A DNA stretch of 64,000 nucleotides from Bacilli bacterium (GCA_017410525.1 JAFQQQ010000002.1:205591-269590); one strand, 5' to 3'; positions 14,148 to 42,549 are shown, numbered from the stretch's first letter. A program made the numbers and translations. The notes: generated by a model not told the origin, from the sequence alone.

Positions 14148-14324
14148 ATGATATATATAGTAAGACATGGACAGACGGATTATAATGTAGAAGGTAGATA
14201 TGGTGGTAGGATAGGTGTAGAATTAAATATTAAAGGAATTGGGCAATCACATATCATTCATAATGAATTAAAGAATATAAAGTTTGATAATGAAAAACTA
14301 AAAGAATTACAAAAATATATATAA
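14148..14324 (+). pseudogene. Histidine phosphatase (phosphoglycerate mutase family) N-terminal remnant
   Basis: Encodes MIYIVRHGQTDYNVEGRYGG (RHG catalytic motif) but stops after about 59 aa. Further short unframed fragments follow to about 14470. Confidence 0.4.
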
Positions 14325-14522: not shown

Positions 14523-14557
14523 TTGACAAACAAAAAAAATTAGAGTATTATTTAATG
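14523..14557 (+). promoter_or_regulatory. Sigma-A-type promoter: TTGACA-17 nt-TATTAT
   Basis: Exact -35 hexamer TTGACA at 14523-14528, a 17-nt spacer and TATTAT -10, situated about 40 nt upstream of the RBS of the small Cys-rich ORF. Confidence 0.5.
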
Positions 14558-14593
14558 TAATATTTTTATCTTTTTAGACAAAGGAGGAATATT

Positions 14594-14740
14594 ATGGTTA
14601 ATTGCTTTAACATAGAAAGATCAGTGATAAAATCAAAATCTAATGTTATTTGCAACAGCTTCTGCTGCAATACTTTAGTATGCTTTTCAATTCTTTCTTG
14701 TCTAAATGAAAAGATGAAAAGCGATATAGCAAAGTCTTAA
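14594..14740 (+). CDS. Cys-rich 48-aa small ORF (MVNCFNIERSVIKSKSNVICNSFCCNTLVCFSILSCLNEKMKSDIAKS): candidate RiPP precursor or regulatory leader peptide
   Basis: Strong RBS AAAGGAGG 7 nt upstream of the ATG. Six Cys in 48 residues. The stop codon lies in the loop of the downstream terminator hairpin. Not in the supplied ORF track because it is under 60 aa. Confidence 0.45.
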   Translation: MVNCFNIERSVIKSKSNVICNSFCCNTLVCFSILSCLNEKMKSDIAKS

Positions 14741-14771
14741 TGACTTTTCTTGTCGCCTTTCATCTTTTTTC
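14708..14771 (+). terminator. Intrinsic terminator / attenuator hairpin overlapping the 3' end of the small ORF
   Basis: GAAAAGATGAAAAGCGA (14708-14724) pairs with TCGCCTTTCATCTTTTTTC (14753-71), followed by a T-run. The left arm encodes the last codons of the small ORF. Confidence 0.55.
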
Positions 14772-14803
14772 TTATAAAAATATAAAAGGAAAAGGAGGGA
14801 TTT

Positions 14804-16237
14804 ATGATAACTATTGAAAAATTATTAAATCATGTAAATACTTATAATCCTGGAGAAGAAGAAATTATAAGAAAAGCTTATGAGTATGCTGATTATTTAC
14901 ATGGAAATCAAATTAGACAAAGTGGAGAACCATATATTACACATCCTTTGAATGTTGCTTATATTTTATCTGAAATGCATGCAGATAGAGATACAATATG
15001 TGCTGCACTCTTACACGATACTCTAGAAGATACAAATACAACTAAAGAAGAAATAGCTGATTTATTTAATAAAGAAATAGCTAACTTAGTAGACGGAGTA
15101 ACAAAGATAAGTAAAATGAATTTTTCTAGTAAAGCAGAACAAAATTTAGCAAACACAAGAAAAATCATAACAGGGCTTACAGAAGATGTAAGAATAATAA
15201 TAATAAAATTAGCCGATAGACTTCATAACATGAGAACTTTAGAATTTAAATCTGAATTTAAGCAAAAAGAAAATTCTTTAGAAACAATGGAAATATTTGT
15301 ACCGCTTGCTTATTATATAGGTGCTTATAGAATAAAAAGTGAGCTAGAAGATATATCTTTTAAATATTTAAAACCAGATAAATATAAAGAAATAGAACAT
15401 AGAATAAATAACTCTAGTATTGAAAATAATAATTGCTTAAATGAAATGTTATTGAATATAGAAGAAATATTAAATAATGAGTCAATACCACATGAAATAA
15501 AAGTTAGAACAAAAAATATATATGGAATATATAAAAGAATAGATAATGGAGAAAACAAAATAAGTGATATACACGATTTATTATCTTTAAAAATAATGGT
15601 AGATGATATAAAAAATTGTTATATAACACTAGGTCTTATACATGATAAATATCATCCAATAAATGGAAGATTTAAAGATTATATTTGTAATCCTAAAACA
15701 AATCTATATAAATCTTTACATTCTACAGTATTTGGGCCTAATGAAAAATTAGTACAAACACAAATAAGAACATTTGATATGGATAAAATAGCATCCTTTG
15801 GTTTAACAGCATATTGGGATATAAATAAAGGTGATGCAAGATATACTATGCAACAAGATTTAAGAGATAATTTTCAATTTTTTAAATCATTATCAGATAT
15901 AAATGTTATGTTTAAGGATAATCAAGATTTTGTATCTCAAATAAAGAATGAATTATTCGCAAATAAAATTTATGTGTATACTACTAACGGTAAAATAATA
16001 GAATTACCTAAAGGATCAAATATTATTGATTTAGCTTGTTATATGGACATAGAAAATGTATTAATAGGAGCTAAAGTAAATGATGAAATAGTTCCTATTG
16101 ATTATATTTTAAAAAATAAAGATAGGGTAATACCACTTATAGATGAATTATCTTATGGATATAGAGAAAGTTGGATAGAAAAAGCGAATACAGTTTATGC
16201 TAAAAAGAAAATAAAGGGGTTAATAGAGAGTAGGTAA
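14804..16237 (+). CDS. RelA/SpoT homologue paralog (HD hydrolase + synthetase-like + TGS), truncated after TGS (477 aa)
   Basis: HD motif LLHDTLEDT, synthetase-domain block GRFKDYICNPKTNLYKSLHSTV..QIRTFDM and a TGS-like domain (IYVYTTNGKIIELPKGSNIIDLA). It lacks the C-terminal helical/ZFD/ACT domains of long RSHs. RBS AAAGGAGGGA. Confidence 0.75.
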   Translation: MITIEKLLNHVNTYNPGEEEIIRKAYEYADYLHGNQIRQSGEPYITHPLNVAYILSEMHADRDTICAALLHDTLEDTNTTKEEIADLFNKEIANLVDGVTKISKMNFSSKAEQNLANTRKIITGLTEDVRIIIIKLADRLHNMRTLEFKSEFKQKENSLETMEIFVPLAYYIGAYRIKSELEDISFKYLKPDKYKEIEHRINNSSIENNNCLNEMLLNIEEILNNESIPHEIKVRTKNIYGIYKRIDNGENKISDIHDLLSLKIMVDDIKNCYITLGLIHDKYHPINGRFKDYICNPKTNLYKSLHSTVFGPNEKLVQTQIRTFDMDKIASFGLTAYWDINKGDARYTMQQDLRDNFQFFKSLSDINVMFKDNQDFVSQIKNELFANKIYVYTTNGKIIELPKGSNIIDLACYMDIENVLIGAKVNDEIVPIDYILKNKDRVIPLIDELSYGYRESWIEKANTVYAKKKIKGLIESR

Positions 16238-16240
16238 AAA

Positions 16241-17401
16241 ATGTTATTTAGATTAGTTGCAATTCGTTGTCATAAAAATATAATTTTCTGTGACAGTTTT
16301 AATGAAAACTTTGAAAAAATACAATTAGCAATTCCATCAGAACTTTTCAACTCATTAGGACTTAAAGTAGGTAGTGTAATTTCTACAAATTATCAAATTA
16401 CTAAAAATAAATATGGAAATGATTTGTATTTCATAAATGATGTACAAAATGTATCAAATCATAATAAAAATATATCTTTTAAATCTATAAATACAAAATT
16501 ATCATCCATGAATCAATCTAGTTTTATTAGTGCATTAAATGGTGGAGTTAATTTAAAATATTGGGAAATGAAACAAAAACTTTTAGAAGAAATTAGAAAA
16601 TTTTTAGTAAATAGAAGTTACATAGAAGTAAATACTTCATTGTTAATGGATAATAGAGGTACTAGTACTGTTAACCCTATGCAAGTAAATGGTAAATACT
16701 GTGGTAATAAATATTTAAAAATAACTCATGAATTAGAATTAAAAAAAATTTGTTATCTTACTTTAAAATCATTATTTGAGATAGGATATGTAACAAGAGA
16801 TGTATATTCTACTAGTAAATCTGCTAATCAATATTTAACATTTGAATTAGTTGCACCTATAGAAGATACATTAACAGCAGAAGAATTATATATTTATGTT
16901 TATGAGATTGCAATTAAGTTGGCTGAATCATATGGTATTTCTTATAATGAGATATTTAATAAAATAGAAACAGTGGATGTTTTAAAATTATATTTATCAA
17001 ATCATAAAAAGATTGATAAGAAAGAATTCCTTGAGTTTTATAAAAAACTATTAGAATTAGAAAAAAATATAATATATGTAAATGCGCCTACCAATACTCC
17101 TTTAGCGAAAGAATCAGAATACGGAATACCTTTAGAAACAAAATGGGCTATAGGAAATAGGGGTATAGGTCATGGATATTATGATCAAAATCAGTTATCG
17201 GTTATAGAAAATTTATTTGAATTACAAAAAGATGCACTAAAAGAAAAAGGGATAGATTCCAGTGTTGATAAAGAATACTTAATGACTTTAATGTATGCAG
17301 GTATAGATACAAAAAGTTTAAATATAGGGATTGATAGATTTATGTATAAATTTTTAGGTTTAGATCACGAAGAGAAAGCAATAAAAATATTAGGATTATA
17401 G
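16241..17401 (+). CDS. Class II aminoacyl-tRNA-synthetase-like protein (LysRS-II/EpmA(PoxA)-like core with N-terminal OB-like region; degenerate motifs)
   Basis: Motif-1-like EIRKFLVNRSYIEVNTSLL, motif-2 region YLKITHELELKK..FEIGYVTRDV..ANQYLTFEL (FRNE/HNPEFT positions substituted) and motif-3-like IGIDRFMYKFLGL. Compared from memory with EpmA/LysRS. Confidence 0.55.
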   Translation: MLFRLVAIRCHKNIIFCDSFNENFEKIQLAIPSELFNSLGLKVGSVISTNYQITKNKYGNDLYFINDVQNVSNHNKNISFKSINTKLSSMNQSSFISALNGGVNLKYWEMKQKLLEEIRKFLVNRSYIEVNTSLLMDNRGTSTVNPMQVNGKYCGNKYLKITHELELKKICYLTLKSLFEIGYVTRDVYSTSKSANQYLTFELVAPIEDTLTAEELYIYVYEIAIKLAESYGISYNEIFNKIETVDVLKLYLSNHKKIDKKEFLEFYKKLLELEKNIIYVNAPTNTPLAKESEYGIPLETKWAIGNRGIGHGYYDQNQLSVIENLFELQKDALKEKGIDSSVDKEYLMTLMYAGIDTKSLNIGIDRFMYKFLGLDHEEKAIKILGL

Positions 17402-17411
17402 AGGTGAACAA

Positions 17412-18671
17412 ATGAAAGAAGATAAAATATTATTTTTGTATCCGCCGACAGTTTATGCTAACCATAGTATGTTTAAGCATTTTACTTATTTTGGCGAAAC
17501 GATAGATGTTATAAGTAGATATTATAAAAATATAAAAGTTTTAGACTGTGCAGTTGAACAAATAGAACAAAAGATAATATTTAATAATTTTAAAGATAGT
17601 AATTTATTAGTAATGGAAATAGAACCTTATAACATAGATGTTGCACTATCTTTAGGAAAATTATATAAATCATTCAACAGTAAAGGAAAAATTATAGTAT
17701 ATGGTACTGCAATTACAATAATGCCCAATTATTTTATGAAACAACATTTATTTGATTATATAATTAATGATGGTAATTTTGCTGTTGGTATATTGGGGGT
17801 AATGAATGAAATTTTAAATACAGAATATCCTTATGAAGTTAAGAGTAAATATTATGAATTAATAAATGGTGAGTATATAATGAAGGGTGATAATTTTCAA
17901 CTTCCAATAAAAGATTGGGGTGTTGGATATAATAAATTATTACCATTAGAAAAATATAAATTTTATAATAATGGTATGTTTGAATTAACTGTTCAAACCG
18001 GTTGCCCTTTTAATTGTTCTTTTTGTTCTGAAAAAATATTATTTGATAAGTATTGTGGAACAAAATATAGAGATGTTGAAGATATTATTAAAATAATGAA
18101 AAATATTAATGACGATTTTAATGAAATATATTTTTCTGCTACAACAATGACAGCAAATAGAAAATGGACTGAAAATTTATGTACTAGATTAATTGAAGAA
18201 GGTAATAAAATGCCTTGGAGAACAGTTACTAGAATTGATTGTGTTGATGAAGAATTGTTAAAATTAATGAAAAAATCAGGATTAAAGAAAATTTGTTTTG
18301 GTGTTGAAACGTTTGATGATAAATTATTAGAAGAGATAAATAAAAAACAAAATGCAAATAATGTAATTAATATATTAAAATTATGCAATAAATTAGGTAT
18401 TAAAGCCAAAGCTTTACTTATGTTGGGTATACCAGGACAAACAGCAAAAAATGTTTTTGATACAGTGAAAATATTAAAAGATTTAAATGTGGAATATAGA
18501 TTTAAAGAATATTCTCCTATTCGTGAAGCACATATATTAGATTCTAAAAATTCTGATATCTCTGATATGATTCCTATTTTTAGTAGATATGAATATAGAA
18601 CAAGTAGTATTCCTGGAATAACTAGTGAAGAATATATGGAATTACTTTTTCCTACAGAATATGTGAGGTAG
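17412..18671 (+). CDS. Radical SAM enzyme, probably class B (N-terminal B12-binding-like domain)
   Basis: CxxxCxxC motif TGCPFNCSFCSE in the middle of the protein, preceded by an about 190-aa Rossmann-like N-domain. Confidence 0.65.
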   Translation: MKEDKILFLYPPTVYANHSMFKHFTYFGETIDVISRYYKNIKVLDCAVEQIEQKIIFNNFKDSNLLVMEIEPYNIDVALSLGKLYKSFNSKGKIIVYGTAITIMPNYFMKQHLFDYIINDGNFAVGILGVMNEILNTEYPYEVKSKYYELINGEYIMKGDNFQLPIKDWGVGYNKLLPLEKYKFYNNGMFELTVQTGCPFNCSFCSEKILFDKYCGTKYRDVEDIIKIMKNINDDFNEIYFSATTMTANRKWTENLCTRLIEEGNKMPWRTVTRIDCVDEELLKLMKKSGLKKICFGVETFDDKLLEEINKKQNANNVINILKLCNKLGIKAKALLMLGIPGQTAKNVFDTVKILKDLNVEYRFKEYSPIREAHILDSKNSDISDMIPIFSRYEYRTSSIPGITSEEYMELLFPTEYVR

Positions 18672-18678
18672 ATTAGCA

Positions 18679-19707
18679 ATGATTGAACATTTAAAAAGTG
18701 GTTTGTCAATATCGACACATTTAGGTTGTGGATTAAAGTGCTCGTATTGTATTTTGTCAACCATGGACGGTTTTAATGAGGGCCCGGTATTACAAATTAA
18801 ACCCAAGGATTTAATATTTAAATTATTTAATGAATATGAATTTTATTGCAAAAATAAAACACCTTTAATGTTAAATAATAGAACAGATCCATTTTTACCA
18901 ACTGTAACACCGTATACTTTAGAAATTTTAGATTTATTAATTGAAAAGCAAGTCGAGTCTCCAATTATAATAATTTCAAAGTTTGCGCCGCCTACAGTTT
19001 TAAAAAAATATTTTTCTTTATTAAATATTTGTTACTTTTATTCTTATTCTGGTATAGATACTGATTTTAACTATAATAAACTTAAAAGTGATTTACAACT
19101 AATAAAAAATGTTGTTCCTAGGTCTTCTAGATTTCATTATTTTAGACCGATAATACCAGGAGTGAACGATGATTTTGAATTTATGAAAAAAATATTAAAT
19201 ATATTTAGTGAAAATGAATTTGATGCCACTGTAATTGCTGGATTTAGGGTAACTAATCTAAATAAACATTTAATAAAAAAGGAAACGATAGATGTTGAAA
19301 AAATTGATTATAATCATAAATTAGTAGATAGTAGTATATATGAAATAAATAAAATATTTAATGCCGAAAATTATCGTATATTTAGACATACTAGTTGTGC
19401 TATAGCAAACCATTTTAATTCTTTTAACAAATTAAATTATTTTTCAAAATGTGGTCATTGCTTTGAATCATGTCCTAACTATGACAACTGTTTAAATAAA
19501 AGAATAAATATTAAAGATATTTTAAAAGAACTTAAAGAAAAATTTGGTAATGAATATAATTTTAAAATTAAAGATAACAAAATTGAAATATTGTCTTTAT
19601 GTACTCAAGAATTAGTTGCTTATATAAAAAATGCTTATGGGTGTGAGATTATTGCAACCAATGTTAAATTATCAAAATCTGAAGAGGTGATTTTAGGTGA
19701 AAAATAA
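18679..19707 (+). CDS. Radical SAM enzyme with C-terminal Cys-rich (SPASM/twitch-like?) region
   Basis: N-terminal GCGLKCSYC (CxxxCxxC). The C-terminal cluster is CAIANH..CGHCFESCPNYDNC. Confidence 0.55.
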   Translation: MIEHLKSGLSISTHLGCGLKCSYCILSTMDGFNEGPVLQIKPKDLIFKLFNEYEFYCKNKTPLMLNNRTDPFLPTVTPYTLEILDLLIEKQVESPIIIISKFAPPTVLKKYFSLLNICYFYSYSGIDTDFNYNKLKSDLQLIKNVVPRSSRFHYFRPIIPGVNDDFEFMKKILNIFSENEFDATVIAGFRVTNLNKHLIKKETIDVEKIDYNHKLVDSSIYEINKIFNAENYRIFRHTSCAIANHFNSFNKLNYFSKCGHCFESCPNYDNCLNKRINIKDILKELKEKFGNEYNFKIKDNKIEILSLCTQELVAYIKNAYGCEIIATNVKLSKSEEVILGEK

Positions 19708-20248
19708 TATTATAGTGGGATGCGATTTACATAATACTTTGTTATTAAGCAATGAAGCTTGGATAAAAGCATTTATAAGTCTTAATTCTAAATTGGATAT
19801 AAATGAAATTTCTAATTTTATATATAGTAAAAAATCAAGAAAAGAAATGGCTAGATTATATAATATTGATTATAATGTATTATTAAATACTTATCATAAA
19901 AATTGTATTCCTAATATAAAATTATTAAATTTTATTAAAGAACTTAAAGTTAAAGGGTTTCCTATTGTTTTAATTTCTTCATCAAGCGAAGAAAAAGTAA
20001 AAAAAGATTTAGAGAAACTAAAAGAATATATTTCTTTTGATAAAATTTATACAAAAGAAACATTTTCTAAAAGTGTTTCTAAAGATTGGGATATGGTTAT
20101 AAAAGAATATAGAGCAAAATTTATGGTATATATAGGAAATGACTATGATGAAGATATAATACATAATGATAAAGTAATATCTATTCTTTCAGGACATTTT
20201 TTTACAGAATTGAAAAAAAACGGTTTTTTAGAAGAAAGAGGTAAATAA
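19697..20248 (+). CDS. HAD-like hydrolase (atypical motif I)
   Basis: N-terminal VGCDLHNTLL (DxHxT in place of DxDxT), Rossmann-like remainder. Overlaps the previous gene by 11 nt. Confidence 0.4.
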   Translation: MKNNIIVGCDLHNTLLLSNEAWIKAFISLNSKLDINEISNFIYSKKSRKEMARLYNIDYNVLLNTYHKNCIPNIKLLNFIKELKVKGFPIVLISSSSEEKVKKDLEKLKEYISFDKIYTKETFSKSVSKDWDMVIKEYRAKFMVYIGNDYDEDIIHNDKVISILSGHFFTELKKNGFLEERGK

Positions 20249-20250
20249 AA

Positions 20251-21168
20251 ATGGAAATATATTTAAAAAAAGAAGATATAGAAAGTTATCTAATAAATCA
20301 GGAAGAAAATATAAAAAACATGATTGATAATTTAGATTCAAGTTGGCCACATTATAATGCAGTGAAAAAATTATTAGAAGAGACTATGTTAGAAATAAAA
20401 AGAAAAGATATACATTGTAATGCTGTTTTATCTTCTACTAAGCATGAACGAAAAATAGAAAAATATGTAAATTGGGTTGAGGTTTATAGACTAGCAAATT
20501 ATCATTTTTCAAAATATACTAGTAGTAATACTTCTTATAGTGAAGGATTGTTTTCAACATTACTTGCGTTAAATAGTATGTATATACATAATAAAAAAAT
20601 TAAGGATATTGGAATAATTGGTTGTGGTCCAGGAAGAAGCGTTTTAGATTTTTCTTTAGCTTATCCAGATGCCACTATTTATGGTTTAGATTATTCCTTA
20701 GTTTCCTTAGTTTTAGCAAGAAATATTGTTAGTACAAATAATAAAAATATTGAGATTATAAGAAGAGATGATGAAGTAGTATTAGATAAAGTTGAAAGCT
20801 TTAATAGGACAAATTGTAAATGGGGAATGTTTGATTTAACTAAATCTAATTTAAATGAAAAATTTGATATCGTAGTATGTTCAAATGTAATAAATTTAAT
20901 GCCTAATCATAAAGATGCTATAAATAAAATTTATGATATGATAAAACCTAATGGATATTTAATATATGCTGATTTAACTGGTTGGAGATTAGATAGAAAG
21001 AAAGAACAACAATTACTTTCTGATAAAAAAGCTATAAAAAATAGTTTTGAAAACGTAGGCTTTGAAACTATAGAATGTTTTGATGGTGGACCATATATAG
21101 AAAAAGAAAATAAAGATAATTTCACGTTTTATAAACAAACTTATTATATAGGAAGGAAGGTAAAATGA
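20251..21168 (+). CDS. Class I SAM-dependent methyltransferase
   Basis: Motif I IGIIGCGPGRSVLDF, motif post-I DYS, 305 aa. Confidence 0.65.
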   Translation: MEIYLKKEDIESYLINQEENIKNMIDNLDSSWPHYNAVKKLLEETMLEIKRKDIHCNAVLSSTKHERKIEKYVNWVEVYRLANYHFSKYTSSNTSYSEGLFSTLLALNSMYIHNKKIKDIGIIGCGPGRSVLDFSLAYPDATIYGLDYSLVSLVLARNIVSTNNKNIEIIRRDDEVVLDKVESFNRTNCKWGMFDLTKSNLNEKFDIVVCSNVINLMPNHKDAINKIYDMIKPNGYLIYADLTGWRLDRKKEQQLLSDKKAIKNSFENVGFETIECFDGGPYIEKENKDNFTFYKQTYYIGRKVK

Positions 21169-21824
21169 AAAATATAATATTATTAAGTGGACCTGATAAA
21201 ACAAAATATTTTGCTAAGGAAATATCAAAAGAAATAAAAAATAACGTTACGCATCCAACAAATATGGTTGTAATACCGGCTGATCCAAATAATTATGAAA
21301 AAAATGATAAACAATTTAAAGGGAATGAAAGTGTAGTTGGAGTATTTAAAACATTTAAAAAAATATTTCCAGATATAAATATTGTTTTGTTAGATAATAG
21401 AGTAGATTCTACAAGTGGATTAAACAAGTTGAAGAAAGCAGATATTATTTATCTACTTGGTGGAAATCCTTTTATTCAATTAGAATACTTGCAAAAAAAT
21501 AATTATAGTGATACAATATGCAGCACAAATGCATTGGTTATGGGAGTTAGTGCTGGATCAATGAATTTAGCTGTTGATTCTTATTATTCTAAAGATGAGG
21601 ATTATCCAGAAAGTGTAATTTATAAAGGATTAGGAATTGTTGACATGACTATAGATCCACATTTTGATATTAACAATGAAGAACAGGTTAAAGAAATAAA
21701 AGTTAATTCAAAAGATAGAAAAATTATTGGTTTACCAAATGATTCAGCAATAATTGTTTCAAATAATAATATAAAATATATTGGTGATATTTATTTATTT
21801 GAAAATGGTGAATTAACTAATTAA
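21165..21824 (+). CDS. Peptidase S51 (dipeptidase E / cyanophycinase-like) family protein
   Basis: GGNPF..., the nucleophile elbow GVSAGS and a downstream His region. Overlaps the previous gene by 4 nt. Confidence 0.55.
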   Translation: MKNIILLSGPDKTKYFAKEISKEIKNNVTHPTNMVVIPADPNNYEKNDKQFKGNESVVGVFKTFKKIFPDINIVLLDNRVDSTSGLNKLKKADIIYLLGGNPFIQLEYLQKNNYSDTICSTNALVMGVSAGSMNLAVDSYYSKDEDYPESVIYKGLGIVDMTIDPHFDINNEEQVKEIKVNSKDRKIIGLPNDSAIIVSNNNIKYIGDIYLFENGELTN

Positions 21825-21855
21825 TTAGTTAGTTTACAAGATAGGGGGAATTGGA

Positions 21856-23433
21856 ATGAATTGGGCATTAGAAGAAGCAAAAAAATTAGTTGAAAAGCAT
21901 CCTGAAAAGGAAGAATTTGTAATCGCATCGGGGGTTAGTCCATCTGGATTTATACACATAGGAAATTTTAGAGAAATCGTTACTACATTTTTTGTAGGTA
22001 AAGAATTAGAAAATTTAGGGAAAAAAGTTAGATTTATATTATCGTTTGATGATTTTGATAGATTTAGAAAAGTTCCTAAAGGAATGCCGGAAAGTTATAG
22101 TAAGTATATAGGAATGCCTTATACTAGTATACCTAGTCCATTTAGTGAAAATAAAACTTATGCTAAAGAAATGGAAGATATATTTGTAAGTGAATTAAAT
22201 AGACTAGGAATTAATCCTGAAACCATATCTCAAACAGAACAATATAAAAGTGGAAGATATGATGATAAAATTAAATTAGCTATGGAACAAAGAAAAAAAA
22301 TATTTGATATAATGGCTAATTATAAAACTCAAGAATTTACAGAAGAAGATAGAAATAATTATTATCCTATAAGTTTATATTGTGAAGAATGTGGTAAAGA
22401 TTCAACAACTATATTAAATTATAATGATGTAACAGGTGATGTAGAATATAAATGTACTTGTGGGCATCATCATATTCAAAATATAAATAAATGTGGTAAT
22501 ATAAAGTTACAATGGAAAATTGATTGGCCAATGAGATGGCAAAAAGAAGGGGTAATTTTTGAACCAGGTGGTAGAGATCATTCTGCAGAAAATGGAAGTT
22601 ATGCTGTATCAAAAGAAATATCTAAACGAATTTTTGAATATGAAGCACCATCCTATGTAGCCTATGATTTTATTGGTATTAAAGGCGCTAATGGTAAAAT
22701 GGCTTCATCAACAGGAAATGTTTTAACATTAACTGATTTATTAAGTGTTTATGATAAAAATATAATATTATGGTTTTATGCCAAAAATAGACCTAATCAT
22801 CAATTTAATATAGCGCTTGATGAAGATGTATTAAGATTCTATACAGAATATGATAGGATGGTAAAAGCATATTTTGAAGGTAAATTAGATGATAAAAATT
22901 CTAGTATTATATCATTAACAGGAGTAACTAGTGGGTATGTTAATAATCCTAATTTTGGATATATAGCAAACTTTTTACCGATGGTAAGTTATAAAGAAGA
23001 AGCACTTGCAAAATTATTAAGTAAAGAAAATATTGATTGTTCTACATTATATTTTAAAAATAGATTACTAAGAGCAACCAATTGGTTAGAAAAATATAAT
23101 AATAGTAAAATAAAAGTGTTAGATGAATTTAATCAAGAATATTATGAAACATTAAGTGATGAAGAAAAAGAATGGTTAGAAAAAACTTTAGTTGTTTTAC
23201 AAAATGAATATGAAACTACTCAGGATTTACAAACAGATTTATATGCTATTGTAAAAAATGGTATAGAAGATTCTAAAGAATTAAAAAATAAACAAAGAAG
23301 ATATTTTCAGATAATTTATAATTTAATTATAGGAAAAGATAATGGACCAAAAATGGGATTATTGCTATCTGCAATGGATTATGAAGTTGTAAAATCTAAA
23401 TTGCAAAAATCAAAAGAAAAAAAATTAAGATAA
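21856..23433 (+). CDS. lysK: Class I lysyl-tRNA synthetase (LysK-type)
   Basis: ASGVSPSGFIHIGNFREIVT (HIGH-equivalent of class-I LysRS) and KMASSTGN (KMSKS). 525 aa. Only 32 nt after the previous gene, so no T-box leader is possible. Confidence 0.8.
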   Translation: MNWALEEAKKLVEKHPEKEEFVIASGVSPSGFIHIGNFREIVTTFFVGKELENLGKKVRFILSFDDFDRFRKVPKGMPESYSKYIGMPYTSIPSPFSENKTYAKEMEDIFVSELNRLGINPETISQTEQYKSGRYDDKIKLAMEQRKKIFDIMANYKTQEFTEEDRNNYYPISLYCEECGKDSTTILNYNDVTGDVEYKCTCGHHHIQNINKCGNIKLQWKIDWPMRWQKEGVIFEPGGRDHSAENGSYAVSKEISKRIFEYEAPSYVAYDFIGIKGANGKMASSTGNVLTLTDLLSVYDKNIILWFYAKNRPNHQFNIALDEDVLRFYTEYDRMVKAYFEGKLDDKNSSIISLTGVTSGYVNNPNFGYIANFLPMVSYKEEALAKLLSKENIDCSTLYFKNRLLRATNWLEKYNNSKIKVLDEFNQEYYETLSDEEKEWLEKTLVVLQNEYETTQDLQTDLYAIVKNGIEDSKELKNKQRRYFQIIYNLIIGKDNGPKMGLLLSAMDYEVVKSKLQKSKEKKLR

Positions 23434-23456
23434 ACTAAATTTGTTTATCTTTTTTG
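23428..23456 (+). terminator. Rho-independent terminator ending the 14.5-23.4 kb operon
   Basis: AGATAAAC-loop-GTTTATCT followed by TTTTTT, immediately after the lysK stop. Confidence 0.55.
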
Positions 23457-23514
23457 TGTTATAATAAGATTGTAGGGGATAAGTATAATGAAAAAAATTA
23501 TTTAAGGAGGAAAT

Positions 23515-23997
23515 ATGATAAGAGAAGCTTTAGAAAAAGATGCTGAGAGAATTGTATATATTAATGTAATGTCTTGGAAAAATACGTATAAACATATTTT
23601 TCCACAAGATTTTTTAGATAGTCTTAATCCTATGAGTATTGATAATATTGAAAAATGTAAGAAAAAAATAAATCAATATATAGTATATGAAGTTGATAAT
23701 AAGGTAGTAGGGTTTGCTAGATTTGGATTAAATAAGAAAAATTATGGTAATGAGTATGGAGAAATACATGCTTTATATTTAGATGATAATTATAAGGGAA
23801 TGAATATAGGAACTGAGCTTGTAAAGTATATATTTGAAAAATTGAAGTCAACATATAAATATGTCTTGATAAGTACTTTAGTTGAAAATAATGCTAATAC
23901 ATTTTATAAAAAATTAGGTGGAAAATTTATAGGTCAAAGTGAATTTGAATTAGAAGGTAAAAAATATTTAGAAAATGTATATGAATATGTTTTATAA
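23515..23997 (+). CDS. GNAT family N-acetyltransferase
   Basis: 160 aa with an acetyl-CoA-binding motif region (..VVGFARFGL...GMNIGTELV..). Own extended -10 (TGTTATAAT) upstream. Confidence 0.65.
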   Translation: MIREALEKDAERIVYINVMSWKNTYKHIFPQDFLDSLNPMSIDNIEKCKKKINQYIVYEVDNKVVGFARFGLNKKNYGNEYGEIHALYLDDNYKGMNIGTELVKYIFEKLKSTYKYVLISTLVENNANTFYKKLGGKFIGQSEFELEGKKYLENVYEYVL

Positions 23998-24059
23998 TTG
24001 ATATAAAAATATATATAACTATAATAAGAAAGATTTCTATTTTTATAGAAATAAAAAAG

Positions 24060-24767
24060 GTGTTTATGAATAAATTTTTAAAAGATATAGAATTTGATAA
24101 TGAATATATAAATTCATGTATAACTAAAGTAGATAATAAATTAAAAGAATATATAAACAATAAAATATTACCTGAATATGATTTAAATGATGAAGGTCAT
24201 AATAAAAATCATATAGAGTTTGTTCTTAAAAGAGCGCTTGAACTAAGTAAAAATTATGATATAAATTACAATATTTTATATGTGTCTGTTAGTTTTCATG
24301 ATATTGCTTGTCATATAAATAGAGAAGAACATGAAGTTTTATCTGCTAATATAGCTTATAAAGATGAATTTTTAAATAAATTCTTTAATAAAGAAGAATT
24401 AACTATAATAAAAGAAGCAATAGAAGACCACAGGGCATCTTCAGATAAAATACCACGTAATATATATGGAAAAATATTATCTTCAGCTGATAGAAAAGTA
24501 GATATAAAAACATATTTGATTTCCTCTTTATTCTTTCAAGTAACAGATATTAGTAATTTAGATATGAATGAAGCAATAGAACAATCTTATAATCATGCTA
24601 TTAAAAAATTTGGTAAGAATGGGTATGCTACTAATAAGTTTTACGTAGATGACAAAAGATATAAAGAATTTCTTACAAACTTACAATATCTAATTGATAA
24701 TAAAGATGAGTTTTATAAATTAGCTGAAATAGTATTTAATGAAGTTAAAAGCAATAAAAAGAATTAA
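24060..24767 (+). CDS. HD-domain phosphohydrolase
   Basis: H...HD pattern (NHIEFV ... VSFHDIACH) and a later D (SSADRK). Confidence 0.55.
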   Translation: MFMNKFLKDIEFDNEYINSCITKVDNKLKEYINNKILPEYDLNDEGHNKNHIEFVLKRALELSKNYDINYNILYVSVSFHDIACHINREEHEVLSANIAYKDEFLNKFFNKEELTIIKEAIEDHRASSDKIPRNIYGKILSSADRKVDIKTYLISSLFFQVTDISNLDMNEAIEQSYNHAIKKFGKNGYATNKFYVDDKRYKEFLTNLQYLIDNKDEFYKLAEIVFNEVKSNKKN

Positions 24768-26862: not shown

Positions 26863-29082
26863 ATGTTGTTTGGTAATATAAATAATACAATGCTATTTTC
26901 TTTGATTTCAGTTTTTTACATGATTTGCTTTGCAATTGGATTTTTTGCTCGTAAAAAAGTTAAATCTGTAGAATTAACGATATTTAAAGGTCTAATTTTA
27001 ACTAATTTAATTTCGTTGATAGTAGAAATATTATTAGTAATATTGATTTTAAATAATAGTAATTTTTTAAATATAATGTTAAGATTTTTTAATGTGTGTA
27101 TTTTTTCATATGTTTGGTTTTTCGGACTCTATAGTTATTTTGTTTTAAAAAGAAGTAAGGAACTTAATTCTAAAAGCTCTTTATTCGTTCTTTATTTAAT
27201 ATATTATTTTGTCTGTTGTATTGGAATGATGATTTCAAAAGTTGAATTGAATCCTGTAGATTTTATGCAATATTCAAAGGGGCCTAGTGTTCAAGTTTTA
27301 TTTATCGCAGTTGGAATGATTGTAATGGTAACAATTATGATGCTTTTAATAAATATAAAAAATATAAAGAAAATAAAATGCACTCCAATAATTATGTTCG
27401 TTTTGTTTATTGGTATAAATGCCATAATTCAATTTATATGGCCTCACATTTTATTGGCTAATTCTTTATTCAGTTTTGTTACATTTTTAATGTACTTTAC
27501 AATAGAAAATCCAGATATAAAGATGGTAAACCAATTAGAACTCGCTAAAGATCAAGCAGAAAAAGCAAACAATGCTAAAACTGATTTCTTAAGTAATATG
27601 TCTCATGAAATAAGAACTCCATTAAATGCTATAGTAGGATTTAGTCAATGTATAGAAAATGCTACTAACTTAGAAGAAGCAAAAGAAGATGCTAAAGATA
27701 TAGTAATGGCTTCTAATAACTTACTTGATATAGTAAATGGTATACTTGATATAAGTAAGATTGAAGCAGATAAGATGGAAATAGTTAATACTGAATATAA
27801 CCTAAAAGAAATATTAGATAATTTAGTAAAACTTATTATACCTAGAATAGGTGAAAAAGATATTGAATTAAAAACTCATTTTGCTGAAGATTTACCAGAG
27901 GTATTATATGGAGATAGTGGTAAAGTAAAACAAATTATTACTAATGTTTTAACTAATGCTGCTAAATATACTGAACAAGGTGAAATTAACTTTAAGGTTA
28001 ATTGTGTTAACGAAAAAGATAAATGCAGATTAGTTATATCTATAAGAGATACTGGTAGAGGTATTAAAACTGAACAAATAGATAAATTATTTAATAAGTT
28101 CCAAAGACTTGATGAAGACAAAAATACAACTACTGAAGGTACTGGACTTGGACTTGCTATTACTAAGAGACTTGTTGAAATGATGGGTGGTAAAATAGTA
28201 GTTCAAAGTGAATATGGAGAAGGTTCTACTTTTACAATTTATTTAACTCAAGAAATAAGAAATGGTTTATATAAAAAAGAAGAAGTTATAGAAGAAGAAA
28301 TAAGTTTTGATAGTAAAAAAGTATTATTAGTAGATGATAATAAATTAAATATTAAAGTAGGTACTAAAATATTAAGAGAATATAATCTAGATATAACACC
28401 TTGTGAAAGCGGATTTGAATGTATAAACAAAATAGAAAATGATAATAATTATGACATTATACTTTTGGATATTATGATGCCTAAAATGAGTGGTGTTGAA
28501 ACTTTAAAAAGATTAAAACAAATAGATGGTTTTGATACTCCTGTAATAGCACTTACAGCAGATGCTATTCAAGGCAGAGAAAATAAATATTTAGAAGTAG
28601 GATTTAGTGGTTATTTATCTAAACCTATTGAACATAGTGAACTAAAAAAGGTATTATCTAAATATTTAATAAGTGTTAAAAAAGAAGAAATTGAAATATT
28701 TGATGAAATCAAAAAAGATAAAAAAGATATTGATTATTTAAAAGAAAGTGGTATTGATGTAGATAGTAGTTTAGAACTTTTAGGAGATATGGAAACATAT
28801 AATGAAACTTTAAAAGATTTCTTAACTGAATGTGAAACAAGACTTCCTAAAATGAAAGAACACTTATCTAATAATGATTCAAATAATTATGCAATACTTA
28901 GCCATGCTTTAAAGAGTGATAGTAAATATTTAGGTTTTAAAAAACTTGCTGAACTATCTTTAGATCATGAATTAAAAGGTAAAGAAAATGATTTAGAATA
29001 TATTAAAGAAAATTCTAACGAACTTATGGATGAAGCAGAAAAAATAATAAATATTATTAAAAATTATTTAGGAGATGAATAA
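26863..29082 (+). CDS. Hybrid sensor histidine kinase (multi-TM sensor + HisKA + HATPase + receiver + C-terminal HPt)
   Basis: About six N-terminal TM helices, H-box [17 protein letters not shown]-boxes (GTGLGLAI), a receiver domain ([21 protein letters not shown]) and HPt-like [12 protein letters not shown]. Confidence 0.8.
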
Positions 29083-29583: not shown

Positions 29584-30546
29584 ATGTTAATTATGAAAAA
29601 TGAAATAATTTTATTTGAAAATCAAGATGTCAAACTTGATGTAAATATAAAAGATGACACAGTATGGTTAAATGCAAAGCAAATAGCTGAATTATTTGAT
29701 AGGGATTATAAAACAATTAGAAAACATATTAATAATGCATTGGAAGAAGAATTAAAAGATGAAGTGGTTGTCGCAAAATTTGCGAATACCACAAAACATG
29801 GTGCAATTAAAGAAAAAAACCAAACTCATATGGTAGATTATTACAATTTAGATGTAATAATATCAGTTGGTTATAGAGTTAAATCTAAAAATGGTATTAT
29901 ATTTAGAAAATGGGCAAATAAAATATTAAAAGAATATTTATTAAAGGGATATGTAGTAAATCAAAAAAGATTAGAATATTTAGAAAAAACTGTTAAGTTA
30001 ATAGATATAGCTAATAGGATTGATGATGAATTAGAAGGTAATGAAGCTAAAGAAATATTAAAAGTAATAGGGGATTATTCTAAAGCCTTAGATTTACTTG
30101 ATAATTATGATCATAAAGATATTACAAAAGTTAAAGGTAGTATTAGTGATAAAAAGATAACTTACAAAGAATGTATAGAAATAATAAATAAATTAAGATT
30201 TAATAGTGATAGTAAGTTATTTGCGCTAGAAAGAGATAAGGGATTAGAATCTATAATAGGTGATATTTATCAAACATTTGATAAAAAAGATGTATATAAA
30301 AGTATTGAAGAAAAGGCTTGTAATTTTCTTTATATGATTATTAAAAACCATGTATTTATAGATGGTAATAAAAGAATAGGTGCGACATTATTTATATATT
30401 TCTTACAATTTTATAATATTTTATATAAGAATGGTAAACAAGTAATAGATAATAATACATTAGTTGCTTTAACACTCCTAATTGCACAATCTAATCCAAA
30501 AGAGAAAGAATTAATAATAGATTTAGTTATGAATTTCTTGGAATAA
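29584..30546 (+). CDS. RhuM-family N-terminal domain fused to Fic/Doc toxin domain
   Basis: The N-terminus resembles the RhuM family (IILFENQDVKLDV..DDTVWLNAKQIAELF). The C-terminus carries the Doc-type motif HVFIDGNKRIGATLF (HxFx(D)GNKR). Confidence 0.6.
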   Translation: MLIMKNEIILFENQDVKLDVNIKDDTVWLNAKQIAELFDRDYKTIRKHINNALEEELKDEVVVAKFANTTKHGAIKEKNQTHMVDYYNLDVIISVGYRVKSKNGIIFRKWANKILKEYLLKGYVVNQKRLEYLEKTVKLIDIANRIDDELEGNEAKEILKVIGDYSKALDLLDNYDHKDITKVKGSISDKKITYKECIEIINKLRFNSDSKLFALERDKGLESIIGDIYQTFDKKDVYKSIEEKACNFLYMIIKNHVFIDGNKRIGATLFIYFLQFYNILYKNGKQVIDNNTLVALTLLIAQSNPKEKELIIDLVMNFLE

Positions 30547-39912: not shown

Positions 39913-39989
<77 letters not shown>

Positions 39990-40003
39990 TCTTATTAAAA
40001 TAT

Positions 40004-40080
40004 GGCCGGTTGGTGAAGCGGCTTAACACACATGCCTTTCACGCATGCATTCACGGGTCCGAATCCCGTACCGGTCACCA
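40004..40080 (+). tRNA. tRNA-Glu (anticodon UUC)
   Basis: Acceptor GGCCGGT/ACCGGTC, anticodon stem CATGC/GCATG with loop CTTTCAC, T arm ACGGG-TCCGAAT-CCCGT, CCA encoded. Resembles the Bacillus tRNA-Glu sequence, judged from memory. Confidence 0.8.
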
Positions 40081-40091
40081 TATGTTAATTA

Positions 40092-40118
40092 ACCCTTGAT
40101 TTTCAAGGGTTTTTATTT
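40092..40118 (+). terminator. Terminator hairpin AACCCTTGA..TCAAGGGTT + T-run after the tRNA pair
   Basis: Perfect 9-bp stem, 4-nt loop, TTTTTATTTT. Confidence 0.6.
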
Positions 40119-40128
40119 TGTCGTTTGA

Positions 40129-40153
40129 GTTTTGGTCTTGTTTTTGGTCTTGT
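40129..40153 (+). repeat. Tandem direct repeat TTTTGGTCTTGT x2
   Basis: GTTTTGGTCTTGTTTTTGGTCTTGTAA. Related copies recur at 41365-41401. Confidence 0.6.
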
Positions 40154-40253
40154 AACTCGTTTTTTTTTTGAACTTTTTTATTTCCTTTTGTCAATATAAA
40201 ATAAAAAACGAAAAAAACATTGAAAAAAAGATCAAAAATATAGAAGTTTTTAA

Positions 40254-40320
40254 ATGGTGACCGGTAAGAAACCCGGACCCACTTATAGCTATAGTGAATA
40301 CCTGCGTGAGTGTGTGTTAA
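40254..40320 (-). pseudogene. Degenerate inverted copy of tRNA-Glu (3' half), pseudo-tRNA fragment
   Basis: TGGTGACCGGTA...GTGAATACCTGCGTGAGTGTGTGTTAAG matches the reverse complement of the tRNA-Glu 3' end and anticodon-arm region with an about 13-nt insertion. The T-arm cannot fold. Confidence 0.45.
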
Positions 40321-40418
40321 GATTTGATAAAATAAATTGACCTCTCGCTTATTTAAAAAAAGTTGATATTTTTTTCTTTTGTGATATAATATAAGAAATT
40401 TTTGTAGGGGGATAATTT

Positions 40419-40700
40419 ATGAAAGAAATCACGTTTTATAGAACATATAGTTATGGTGGTATGGAAGGTAGAAACAAAGAAGTGAGAAATTTTGAAACAG
40501 TAGAGTTAGCTGTTCAAGATGCTCTTAAAGATACTTGGAATGACCAATTTAAATTATATAAAGTAAAAATGATATTTGATGGAAAAATAACAGAAGAAGA
40601 AAAGTACATAGAACCTTTAGTGTGTGGTAGAGATTTAATTTCTGATAATCCATTGAATAAATTAAATTTAGAATCTTTAACTAAACCAAAAAGAAAATAG
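40419..40700 (+). CDS. Hypothetical 93-aa protein
   Basis: ORF with RBS GGGGGATAA and an upstream extended -10 (TGATATAAT). No recognisable domain. Confidence 0.4.
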   Translation: MKEITFYRTYSYGGMEGRNKEVRNFETVELAVQDALKDTWNDQFKLYKVKMIFDGKITEEEKYIEPLVCGRDLISDNPLNKLNLESLTKPKRK

Positions 40701-40784
40701 TGTTGTATCTTGATTTTTAGATTTTATTTAGTAGTTAACGTTTGTCAAAAAATTTTTAAAAAAACATAAAAAGGAGTTTCTGTA

Positions 40785-41345
40785 ATGAAAGAAAAATTAT
40801 TTAATACAAGTGATGGTATAAAATATAAATTCTCAAGATTTTATATTATTAAAAATAATTATTTATTTAGTACTAGTAATGCTAATTTAGGTCATAATTT
40901 AAAAACTTGTTGTTGTATAAAAAAGTTAGGTTCAAATGTTCGTCCTAAAATTTATTTAGATATAAAAAAGGATAATAAGATAATCATGAAAAACAAACTT
41001 ATAGGTGATTACCAAGCATTAATGGATTTTATAGTGGAACACCAGAATGATTTTATATTTATAAAAGGTTTTAGTAGAGCTAGTATGGCTGAATTTATAG
41101 CAATGCTTAATATCAAAAAGCAGATGAATATTAAACCTGTAAAATTTAAAAATAAAATATTAGAGGCACAATACGAAAGACATTTACTAACAAAAGAACA
41201 ACGCATTGAAGAATTAAATAAAAAATTAGAAAATGGCGCAGAAGTTGATAGTGCTGAGCAATATATGAAAATTACCAATTCAGTATTTGGTATAAATAGA
41301 TATAAGTCTAGACAAAAAATTATACAATTAAGAAAAAATAGTTAG
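40785..41345 (+). CDS. Hypothetical 186-aa protein (basic, coiled-coil C-terminus)
   Basis: RBS AAAGGAG. No recognisable catalytic motif. It is the larger of the two ORFs of the islet. Confidence 0.4.
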   Translation: MKEKLFNTSDGIKYKFSRFYIIKNNYLFSTSNANLGHNLKTCCCIKKLGSNVRPKIYLDIKKDNKIIMKNKLIGDYQALMDFIVEHQNDFIFIKGFSRASMAEFIAMLNIKKQMNIKPVKFKNKILEAQYERHLLTKEQRIEELNKKLENGAEVDSAEQYMKITNSVFGINRYKSRQKIIQLRKNS

Positions 41346-41364
41346 GCTAAATAACTATTTTTTG

Positions 41365-41401
41365 TTTTAGTCTTATTTTGGTCTTGTGGTTTGGTCTTGT
41401 A
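41365..41401 (+). repeat. Tandem direct repeats TTTAGTCTTAT / TTTGGTCTTGT / TTTGGTCTTGT
   Basis: Same 11-mer family as at 40129-40153, in the same orientation, near the other end of the islet. Confidence 0.55.
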
Positions 41402-41541
41402 AATGGTTACTATTTGTTAAAATTATCAAAATAAACAGTAACAAAAAATGATAAAACAGTAACACGAAATCCCTTTGTTTTTAAGGCAATATGGCATTAG
41501 CCCTTTATTTTCAATAATTTTCTAAAAATAGAAGTTCACAT

Positions 41542-41558
41542 TCCCGTACCGGTCACCA
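41542..41558 (+). repeat. Direct repeat of tRNA-Glu 3' end (attR-like)
   Basis: A 17/17 identity to 40064-40080. Confidence 0.6.
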
Positions 41559-41606
41559 TTTATGAATTAGAAACCATTTTATATGGTTTTTTTCTTTATA
41601 TAATTG

Positions 41607-41640
41607 TGAACGCATTGCGTGGTGTGAGTGATTAAGCCTT
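41607..41640 (-). pseudogene. Second inverted tRNA-Glu-like fragment
   Basis: GTGAACGCATTGCGTGGTGTGAGTGATTAAGCC resembles the reverse complement of the tRNA-Glu anticodon/D-arm region (..GTGAATGCATGCGTG..GTGTGTTAAGCC). Confidence 0.35.
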
Positions 41641-41771
41641 ATATGGTTTTGAGTAAGTATTAATACTAAAATAACTGAATGGAATGAACCTGAATAGACC
41701 TCTCGCTTAAATTAATAATTTATGTTATAATTAAATTGTCATATAAATGATAAGTTGTAAGGAGGAAATAC

Positions 41772-42419
41772 ATGAATAATACTATAGTAACATATGAAAC
41801 ATTCCATGGAAGTGCGAAGAAGATAGCTAATATAATTTCTGATAAATTAAATTGCAAATGTATTAATATAGATACACCTTTTGAAGCTGAAGATTTAAAA
41901 GAAATAGATAATATAATATTAGTATTTAACTTTAGAGGGCCATATACTGCTCAATTAACTAAATTATATTTAAATAGAGTTAAAGAACAGTTAAAAAATA
42001 AAAATGTAATTTTAGTAGGTGAAGGATTATTTTCAGAAAAAGAATTCCCTGTAGTAGCAGATGAAATATACAAAAATAACCCATCAAAAACATTTAACAA
42101 ATTTTTTGTTAATGGACAATTAAGAATGGAAACATTATTTCCAGAAGAAAGAGCTCTACTTAAAAAGTTTAGTGAAATAACTGGTATGGAAATAAAAGAT
42201 ATGGGAGAACTTGATTTGAAGAAAGCAGAAGAAGTTGCTAATGAAATTGAAAGATTGATTGAAACGGATGAATTTAAGACTCCAATAGAAAATGAAACAA
42301 ATGAAAATCAAGGAACAAAGTGGGTTTGTCCAGTATGTGGGTATATCCACTATGGAGATAATCCACCAGAAAAATGTCCTTTGTGTGGAGTACCTAAAGA
42401 ACTTTTTAGAAAAGAATAA
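41772..42419 (+). CDS. Flavodoxin-like domain fused to C-terminal rubredoxin-like zinc/iron finger
   Basis: N-terminal flavodoxin-fold pattern (TYETFHGSAKKIA), C-terminal WVCPVCGY...CPLCG (rubredoxin CxxC...CxxC). RBS AAGGAGG. Confidence 0.65.
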   Translation: MNNTIVTYETFHGSAKKIANIISDKLNCKCINIDTPFEAEDLKEIDNIILVFNFRGPYTAQLTKLYLNRVKEQLKNKNVILVGEGLFSEKEFPVVADEIYKNNPSKTFNKFFVNGQLRMETLFPEERALLKKFSEITGMEIKDMGELDLKKAEEVANEIERLIETDEFKTPIENETNENQGTKWVCPVCGYIHYGDNPPEKCPLCGVPKELFRKE

Positions 42420-42546: not shown

Positions 42547-42549
42547 AGT

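Follow-up and report, generated by a model that had tools for sequence, protein, structure and literature searches.

Among the synthetases, only lysyl-tRNA synthetase (LysRS) is, to our knowledge, represented by two classes that are unrelated to each other. The gene clusters for several inhibitors of aminoacyl-tRNA synthetases (aaRSs), namely albomycin, indolmycin, borrelidin and agrocin 84, contain a resistant second synthetase. The producer of mupirocin also has a second isoleucyl-tRNA synthetase (IleRS), as cited in PMC1475646. In the case of microcin C, the peptidase families S51 (MccG) and S66 (MccF) have been shown to cleave the aminoacyl-nucleotide bond of the processed compound (PMC9239234). 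The lysK gene of Bacillus cereus encodes a class-I LysRS, which is a second copy regulated by a T-box (PMC2916919). In this study we analyzed a stretch of 64,000 nucleotides from a Bacilli bacterium (GCA_017410525.1 JAFQQQ010000002.1:205591-269590), which we call the window and in which positions are counted from the first nucleotide. The window, which derives from a gut metagenome-assembled genome, has about 24% G+C and carries, at 14804-23433, an operon that encodes both a relative of class-II LysRS and a class-I LysRS. We tentatively propose, with slightly less than even confidence, that this operon is a biosynthetic cluster whose product carries lysine, is probably linked to a nucleotide and inhibits class-II LysRS, and that the class-I LysRS acts as an insensitive bypass.

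As in the aaRS-inhibitor clusters, the biosynthetic genes contain or adjoin an aaRS gene for the putative target amino acid, and this gene moves with them. Unlike in those clusters, the linked enzyme comes from the other structural class instead of being a resistant form within the class of the target, and in some hosts the linked class-I LysRS is apparently the sole native LysRS. The locus resembles B. cereus lysK in that a class-I LysRS is found in a Firmicute and, in one related locus (L014), coexists with a class-II enzyme. It differs from lysK in that there is no T-box, the gene ends an operon of eight genes, and the enzyme is probably the primary one in its lineage.

The eight open reading frames (ORFs) of the operon all lie on the plus strand with intergenic spacing of -11 to +31 nt. 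Their order is a Rel-like protein, the LysRS-like protein, a B12-type radical S-adenosylmethionine (SAM) enzyme, a second radical-SAM enzyme distantly similar to spore photoproduct lyase (SPL), a HAD-family phosphatase, a methyltransferase (MT), a peptidase of family S51 and the class-I LysRS. When the LysRS-like gene is written as K2like and the class-I LysRS gene as K1, six gene orders with K1 within one to three genes can be distinguished. The first, Rel-K2like-B12-SPL-HAD-MT-S51-K1, is that of the window and of the related loci L006, L011 and L013, and L012 shows the same order minus the Rel-like gene. The second, B12-SPL-HAD-MT-K2like-S51-K1, occurs at L041, and the third, K1-B12-SPL-HAD-MT-K2like-S51like, at L009, L018 and L014. 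In the fourth (L008), GNAT-K2like-B12-SPL-HAD is convergent with tRNA-Lys(UUU)-tRNA-Lys(CUU)-K1-NUDIX, the two tRNA genes (L008 9871-10033) being immediately upstream of K1 and NUDIX. In the fifth (L054), K2like and a B12/radical-SAM fusion are divergent from K1, and in the sixth (L107), S51 and K1 are divergent from AAA_28-S51-K2like::Tmk.

The linked class-I LysRS genes fall in three lineages that are mutually 25-42% identical. Mobility genes are present at L041 (serine recombinase, IS256 and IS200) and at L054 (relaxase), and L008 is a mobile-looking element with an excisionase-like gene, AbiEii and ParD. When we counted the lineages that had been found without class-I LysRS as bait, adjacency was seen in 4 of 9. 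If the genome is taken as about 2.5 Mb and a distance of +/-10 kb is allowed, chance adjacency can be roughly put at about 0.8% per lineage, which gives about 5e-7 for the adjacency observed. The lineages without an adjacent class-I gene are four, that is, L017/L019 (alphaproteobacterial), L021 (archaeal), L002 and L003; Alphaproteobacteria and archaea natively use class-I LysRS, according to PMC1475646. Because the linkage is recurrent and independently assembled, it is very likely that the LysRS-II-like module and the class-I LysRS are functionally tied.

The last gene of the operon had been described in the first-pass annotation as a genuine class-I LysRS, and this was borne out. Its product contains SPSGFIHIGNFRE with the HIGN and KMASS motifs, and it scored 415 bits against TIGR00467 (cut-off, 147.55) and 390 bits against Pfam tRNA-synt_1f. 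The gap between the S51 stop codon at 21824 and the ATG of this gene at 21856 is exactly 31 nt, in agreement with the remark in that annotation that no T-box can fit there. Neither a T-box nor a lysine riboswitch nor any other Rfam element was found in the window, the operon leader or the related loci.

One explanation of the arrangement is that the class-I enzyme is the sole housekeeping LysRS and by chance ends an unrelated accessory operon. Class-I LysRS is widespread and standalone in metagenome-assembled genomes (MAGs) of sister Bacilli, the 64-kb window contains no class-II LysRS, and co-transcription of a housekeeping aaRS with unrelated genes is frequent. The comparative data strongly disfavor this explanation, which we consider improbable: five further gene orders show the pairing, the class-I LysRS lineages involved are unrelated, some of the loci are on mobile elements, and in one of them an intact class-II lysS is adjacent. 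The close relatives of the window enzyme, about 32 in number (66-100% identity), coincide with the cluster-bearing lineage. The first-pass annotation had held that a class-I LysRS which was the only LysRS of the organism would be plain housekeeping. This view is half right. That is, the class-I LysRS is probably native here and may be the sole LysRS of the window organism, but the linkage recurs independently elsewhere, and therefore plain housekeeping is an insufficient explanation.

The statement in the same annotation that Firmicutes normally use class-II LysRS was oversimplified. Class I is common in gut Bacilli MAGs, and in many Clostridia-like contigs it occupies the greA-lysS site. The Clostridia-type class-I enzymes (L027-L061, for example L030, L034-L036 and L057) have 670-700 aa, are common in metagenome loci, possess a C-terminal tRNA_bind (MetRS-C/Trbp111-like) domain and are often encoded immediately 3' of greA. 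Since this is the canonical lysS site of Firmicutes, the position suggests that class I is the housekeeping LysRS in many Clostridia-like organisms. From its occurrence in Bacilli and in the Clostridia type, class-I LysRS is thus commoner in Firmicutes than had been assumed.

The product of ORF 16241-17401, which is 100% identical to protein P0001 (IJE04_01995), had been annotated as a degenerate class-II LysRS-like or EpmA-like ligase with an N-terminal OB-like segment. The motif strings cited for it are present (GYVTRDVYSTSKSANQYLTFELVAP). It scored 31.4 bits against Pfam tRNA-synt_2 (cut-off, 25) and stayed below the curated LysRS-II cut-offs, with 48 bits against TIGR00499 (427.6) and 48 bits against NF001756 (468). 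When a profile of 16 family members was compared with solved structures, class-II LysRS was matched with E=4e-21, aspartyl-tRNA synthetase (AspRS) with 3e-6 and GenX/EpmA (3g1z) with 3.5e-3. Residues 4-218 of the profile aligned to residues 59-278 of LysRS, and some alignments extended into the LysRS N-terminal domain. In the AlphaFold model (pLDDT 81.5) a beta-barrel at the N terminus is followed by a class-II core, and the model matched full-length LysU/LysS with E of about 3e-19 and TM of 0.66-0.72. Because this match takes in the beta-barrel, the OB-like segment is real, and the annotated LysRS fold with an OB domain can be retained. Judging from the profile and the modeled structure, the protein is a LysRS-II paralogue with an OB domain that is derived from LysRS rather than from EpmA, and not an EpmA-type core.

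The likeness to EpmA did not hold. An EpmA-like lysylation of EF-P or of another target would agree with weak EpmA/GenX matches of 33-37 bits and with the superficial similarity to epmA-epmB, since in both cases a truncated LysRS-II relative, here predicted to bind lysine, stands beside a radical-SAM enzyme. In the profile comparison LysRS is ahead of GenX by about 18 orders of magnitude, the score against TIGR00462 was 33 bits (cut-off, 286.9), and the present protein, unlike EpmA, keeps an OB domain and is closer to LysRS. In addition, neither radical-SAM enzyme is of the lysine-aminomutase type, unlike EpmB, and the class-I LysRS, the peptidase and the kinase are left unexplained; the peptidase, HAD, MT and class-I LysRS partners also set the locus apart from the EF-P pathway. 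We therefore consider EpmA-like lysylation very improbable.

Two radical-SAM partners are present, as the annotation had proposed, with the motifs CPFNCSFC and CGLKCSYC. For the first (ORF 17412), the top NCBIfam matches were HpnJ, PhpK and ApyD, which began at residue 36-40 and were all far under cut-off, and the nearest solved structure was AprD4 (E=1e-9). In the second (ORF 18679), the CxxxCxxC motif lies at residues 17-24 and a CxxCx3Cx5C motif at the C terminus, and both are invariant across its family (>130 sequence clusters). Its AF2 model (pLDDT 91.5) shows a radical-SAM fold with a partial TIM barrel that matched SPL, PFL-AE, SuiB and HydE. The best TM, 0.50-0.52, was to SPL, and the fold search gave no close solved structure. 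The suggestion that one partner could be a lysine-2,3-aminomutase-like enzyme was not supported: no NCBIfam cut-off was reached, no lysine aminomutase was among the hits listed, and lysine-2,3-aminomutase appeared only at rank 31 in the fold search, with TM of 0.37-0.40. Between the two inferences of the first-pass annotation, the comparative evidence favors a self-resistance LysRS for a product that targets LysRS.

The pyrrolysine system (PylS, PylB, PylC and PylD) is similar to the locus in that a class-II aaRS-type protein stands beside a radical-SAM enzyme with lysine-related chemistry. Unlike that system, the locus has neither a dedicated tRNA nor PylC/PylD homologues; the match to PylS had E=0.01, and PylB came at rank 34 in the fold search.

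For the active site we aligned 38 members of the LysRS-like family with five genuine LysRS-II sequences. As reference we used the catalytic residues of LysU, which we take to be R262, E264, H270, N271, F274, E278, Y280, N424, E428 and R480, and its lysine-binding acids, E240, E278 and E428. The equivalents of these three acids in the window protein are E164, E202 and D315, and they are Glu, Glu and Asp/Glu in almost the whole family. The aromatic residue that stacks on adenine is kept (Y198 in the window protein), and most members, the window protein among them, retain R186 of motif 2 and R366 of motif 3. At the positions of LysU E264, H270, N271 and Y280, the window protein has V, S, A and V. 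The equivalent of E264 is lost family-wide, those of H270 and N271 are lost in the subgroup of the window, and that of N424 is an invariant His. From this pattern we infer that the subgroup of the window is a lysine-binding enzyme that is still ATP-competent and in which the second half-reaction has been remodeled.

The LysRS-like family comprises 33 clusters at 90% identity and about 40 clusters at 50% identity, and a search of 1.84 billion proteins gave 39 representatives at E<=1e-30. It grades via further short LysRS-like paralogues into true LysRS. Domain fusions were found with radical SAM (P0030 and P0289) and with thymidylate kinase (P0297).

The usual neighbors of the LysRS-like gene are two radical-SAM genes and a HAD gene, mostly with an MT gene, plus, nearly always, a peptidase gene; the HAD gene adjoins the SPL-like gene in every locus. 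The peptidase is of family S51 in the window-type loci, L002 and L041, with two copies in L107 and a distant S51-like form in L009/L018. In two alphaproteobacterial MAGs (L017 and L019) an S66 peptidase takes its place. In L107 the radical-SAM cassette is absent, and an AAA_28 kinase belongs to the same gene group. NUDIX genes are found at L003 and L008. The AAA_28 kinase, NUDIX and HAD neighbors, together with the thymidylate-kinase fusion, point to nucleotide chemistry.

These partners recall microcin C. In both, a serine peptidase of the MccG (S51) or MccF (S66) family is a fixed partner, a match that holds at the family level; a GNAT gene (compare MccE) is sometimes adjacent, nucleotide-handling genes are present, and the context is often mobile. 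The predicted target of the cluster is, as with microcin C, a class-II(b) aaRS. Unlike microcin C, the ten proteins scanned at 14804-24767 contain no ThiF-type domain (MccB), and no heptapeptide precursor was seen, the small ORF in the operon leader ending in ...IAKS and not in Asn. Furthermore, the amino-acid activator here is an aaRS paralogue, two radical-SAM enzymes and a whole replacement synthetase are included, and the predicted amino acid is lysine instead of aspartate.

We propose the following mechanism for a cluster that makes a LysRS inhibitor, in which we infer the product and its chemistry. The LysRS-like protein would still bind lysine and ATP and would have lost tRNA charging. 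It would join lysine to a phosphorylated, probably nucleotide-type scaffold, and the two radical-SAM enzymes (B12-type and SPL-like) would take part in the tailoring of this scaffold together with the HAD phosphatase and the methyltransferase. The resulting compound may mimic lysyl-adenylate or a lysine-like intermediate and so block class-II LysRS. The co-transcribed class-I LysRS, of which the active site is unrelated to that of class II, would keep the producer translating, and the S51 peptidase would hydrolyze stray aminoacyl-nucleotide, as MccG does with microcin C. The discussion in PMC1475646 reports that lysine analogues affect LysRS1 less than LysRS2. This tolerance, the lysine pocket, the peptidase families, the links to kinase, HAD and NUDIX genes, and the mobile context all fit the proposal of an inhibitor.

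The leader of the operon bears on a different possibility. Its predicted fold has a minimum free energy of -61.8 kcal/mol (z = -4.96), and it gave no Rfam match. Within it, a small Cys-rich ORF (14594-14740) follows a GGAGG ribosome-binding site (RBS) and overlaps a terminator hairpin plus U-run (14708-14772), the Lys codons K40 and K42 falling in the 5' arm of the hairpin. This leader may be a leader-peptide attenuator. The TTGAC box of the operon promoter is also kept in L006, L011 and L013, and the small peptide is partly shared with L011 (IKS[KN]SNVIC...LSCLN), L006 having a looser Cys-rich ORF.

In a scheme of the PEARL or RiPP type, this peptide would be a scaffold that receives lysine from the LysRS-like protein and is then tailored by the methyltransferase and the radical-SAM enzymes, and the S51/S66 peptidase would release an antimetabolite derived from lysine. 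The strong RBS and partial conservation in L011 would suit such a role, the B12-type radical-SAM enzyme weakly matches RiPP maturases (ApyD, 79 bits; rSAM_ocin_1, 35.8 bits), and S66 enzymes are carboxypeptidases. No comparable peptide gene was found in the upstream regions scanned (L002, L008, L009/L018, L014 and L003), the C-termini differ among the three related peptides, and the overlap with the terminator is more like that of a regulatory leader. We rejected the small ORF as a universal scaffold peptide, conservation being confined to the closest lineage, and the scheme as a whole seems quite improbable.

A system centered on tRNA-Lys is another possible reading. The OB domain would bind the anticodon, and the tRNA would either be modified or be charged; in the latter case the radical-SAM, HAD and methyltransferase enzymes would provide the lysine derivative to be attached. 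The class-I LysRS, with its tRNA_bind domain in Clostridia, and the TGS-bearing Rel-like protein would also serve to handle tRNA. Several observations agree with this, namely the retained OB domain and the alignment of the whole protein to full-length LysRS, the two tRNA-Lys genes that accompany the L008 element, the TGS domain in the operon, and the C-terminal tRNA_bind domain of the Clostridia-type enzyme. Such a system gives no obvious role to the S51/S66 peptidase, the thymidylate-kinase fusion, the HAD protein or NUDIX, and the cassette also occurs without an aaRS-like gene in natural-product-like clusters. Moreover, no special tRNA was found in the other eleven cluster-bearing loci scanned or near the window cluster, and the distribution is sporadic and partly mobile, unlike that of a core tRNA modification. 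We regard a tRNA-centered system as rather unlikely.

The cassette without the aaRS-like gene, that is, the two radical-SAM genes and HAD with or without MT, was found at L015, L016, L020, L023 and L024/L025. Its settings there include glycosyltransferases, a SPASM radical-SAM enzyme, a carrier protein, an AMP-binding enzyme, an AraC regulator, a MatE pump and a relaxase. Such surroundings are in part clearly those of secondary metabolism, which speaks for our proposal of a biosynthetic cluster. The cassette appears to be an uncharacterized biosynthetic cassette that is widespread in gut metagenomes. At L024 it is carried on a mobilizable element with MatE and a methyltransferase-His_Phos fusion; at L016 and L023 it lies beside GT2 and a SPASM radical-SAM enzyme, to which L023 adds the carrier protein and the AMP-binding enzyme. 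In Marsarchaeota (L021/L022), an aromatic ammonia-lyase/aminomutase of the MIO type, a radical-SAM enzyme, the LysRS-like protein, the SPL-like enzyme and HAD are encoded together, and a convergent histidyl-tRNA synthetase (HisRS) gene adjoins them.

The state of the class-II gene varies among the hosts. In L014 (Lachnospiraceae) the order is dusB-greA-lysS-LysRS-I-cluster, with an intact class-II lysS (720 bits). Therefore both LysRS classes coexist where the cluster is present, and in this one genome a class-II lysS and a cluster-linked class-I gene occur together, a combination that would be expected of a self-resistance cluster. In L018/L009 the class-II gene is missing from the canonical greA site. 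The comparison of L014 with L018/L009 is the basis for a further reading, which we think unlikely, in which the locus is a selfish "target-swap" module. In this case an intracellular inhibitor of class-II LysRS would be carried with an insensitive class-I LysRS, and sometimes tRNA-Lys, and the host would become dependent on the module and eventually lose lysS.

Several observations weigh against a cluster for a LysRS inhibitor. The class-I LysRS is probably native in the lineage of the window, where it would also be the housekeeping enzyme, and therefore it need not be a second, resistant copy here. Other Bacilli MAGs contain hundreds of 517-aa class-I LysRS genes with 56-60% identity, and the one viewed in its context (L026) was standalone with no cluster; most Clostridia-type class-I genes likewise have no cluster nearby. 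Conversely, L002 and L003 carry the LysRS-like gene with no class-I LysRS within 10 kb. In the subgroup of L107 (P0295, P0296, P0297 and P0302), both ATP arginines are lost, which is awkward for an adenylating ligase, and the retained OB domain would also be in keeping with a function directed at tRNA. That the scaffold is a nucleotide is deduced only from gene neighbors and fusions. Finally, the window shows no identified product, exporter or regulator, and its flanks consist of housekeeping genes (acetate kinase, Maf, NUDIX, an AMP-binding enzyme and a hybrid histidine kinase).

The features of the operon and its borders are collected in Table 1.

Table 1. Positions of the operon genes and of the elements around them in the window
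Feature	Position	Strand	Remarks
Sigma-70-like promoter	14523..14551	+	TTGACA-17 nt-TATTAT; 11/12 positions match; highest-scoring in scan of region
Structured leader (predicted fold)	14558..14800	+	48-aa Cys-rich ORF and terminator hairpin with U-run
Truncated RelA/SpoT homologue	14804..16237	+	477 aa; Pfam HD_4, RelA_SpoT, TGS; TIGR00691 502.6 bits
Class-II LysRS paralogue, predicted lysine-binding ligase	16241..17401	+	386 aa; OB and class-II core
Radical-SAM enzyme, B12-binding (class B) type	17412..18671	+	CPFNCSFC; Pfam Radical_SAM 80.7 bits
Second radical-SAM enzyme, distantly SPL-like	18679..19707	+	342 aa; no Pfam hit
Small HAD-family phosphatase	19697..20248	+	Pfam HAD_2 26.3 bits
Class-I SAM-dependent methyltransferase	20251..21168	+	Pfam Methyltransf_31, _12, _25, _11
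Peptidase family S51, candidate MccG-like hydrolase	21165..21824	+	GGN...SAGS motif; Pfam Peptidase_S51 64.9 bits
Class-I lysyl-tRNA synthetase	21856..23433	+	Last operon gene
AT-rich hairpin and U-run, likely operon terminator	23427..23456	+	-9.5 kcal/mol; z = -3.05
GNAT acetyltransferase	23515..23997	+	Own promoter-like sequence (TGnTATAAT); Pfam Acetyltransf_1

In the Rel-like protein the HD and ED motifs are intact and the C-terminal regulatory domains are absent. Its synthetase domain is degenerate, with QTQIRT at the motif that we take to be EIQIRT in Rel, where the Glu would be catalytic. The protein is probably a hydrolase with a TGS domain, and possible roles are the damping of the stringent response or the processing of a nucleotide. 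The divergent cluster at L003 adjoins a 29%-identical Rel-like homologue with no detectable synthetase domain. We rejected ORF 26863-29082 as a housekeeping Rel of the window because it aligns as a membrane hybrid histidine kinase. The S51 protein was rejected as a PepE orthologue (41 bits; cut-off, 156).

The hairpin at the end of the operon comes after the stop codon of the class-I LysRS gene, and the genes that follow encode the GNAT protein and then an HD protein. The GNAT gene is possibly associated with the operon by a loose linkage. It was rejected as a conserved member, since a homologue is found only in L013, upstream, and the L008 cluster is headed by an unrelated GNAT gene.

Upstream, a 58-aa ORF at 14148-14324, which starts with MIYIVRHGQTDYN, resembles an N-terminal fragment of a histidine phosphatase and is probably a pseudogene remnant. 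It has no similarity to the methyltransferase-His_Phos fusions of L015 and L024, and we rejected it as a relic of such a fusion. ORF 29584-30546, downstream of a pair of hybrid histidine kinase and response regulator, has RhuM and Fic/DOC domains. Six tRNA genes (Ile, Glu, Gln, Leu, Thr and Val) at 39913-42792 and a separate tRNA-Lys(CUU) gene at 50310-50385 are far from the operon and probably unrelated to it. An anti-phage defense system was rejected, PADLOC giving only weak generic matches, and so was a phage origin, relatives of the LysRS-like protein being absent from viral contigs.

Our literature searches found no earlier description of a cluster of the LysRS-like gene and class-I LysRS. 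Among natural inhibitors of LysRS, a review lists only the fungal compound cladosporin (PMC7916415), and a review of Trojan-horse inhibitors of aaRSs has no lysine case (PMC8323819). In PMC1475646, it is surmised that the spread of class-I LysRS gave protection from unknown "harmful lysine analogues".

If our proposal is true, the cluster would provide the natural inhibitor that has been missing, and with it a selective force, open to testing, by which class-I LysRS repeatedly displaced class-II LysRS through lateral transfer. Among the natural-product pathways of bacteria it would be the first with LysRS as its target, and it would reveal a new biosynthetic use of the aaRS fold together with two uncharacterized radical-SAM enzymes that occur as a pair in many gut metagenomes. 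If the locus were instead a target-swap module, it would give a concrete answer to the long-standing puzzle of what has driven class-I LysRS to replace class-II LysRS so patchily among bacteria.

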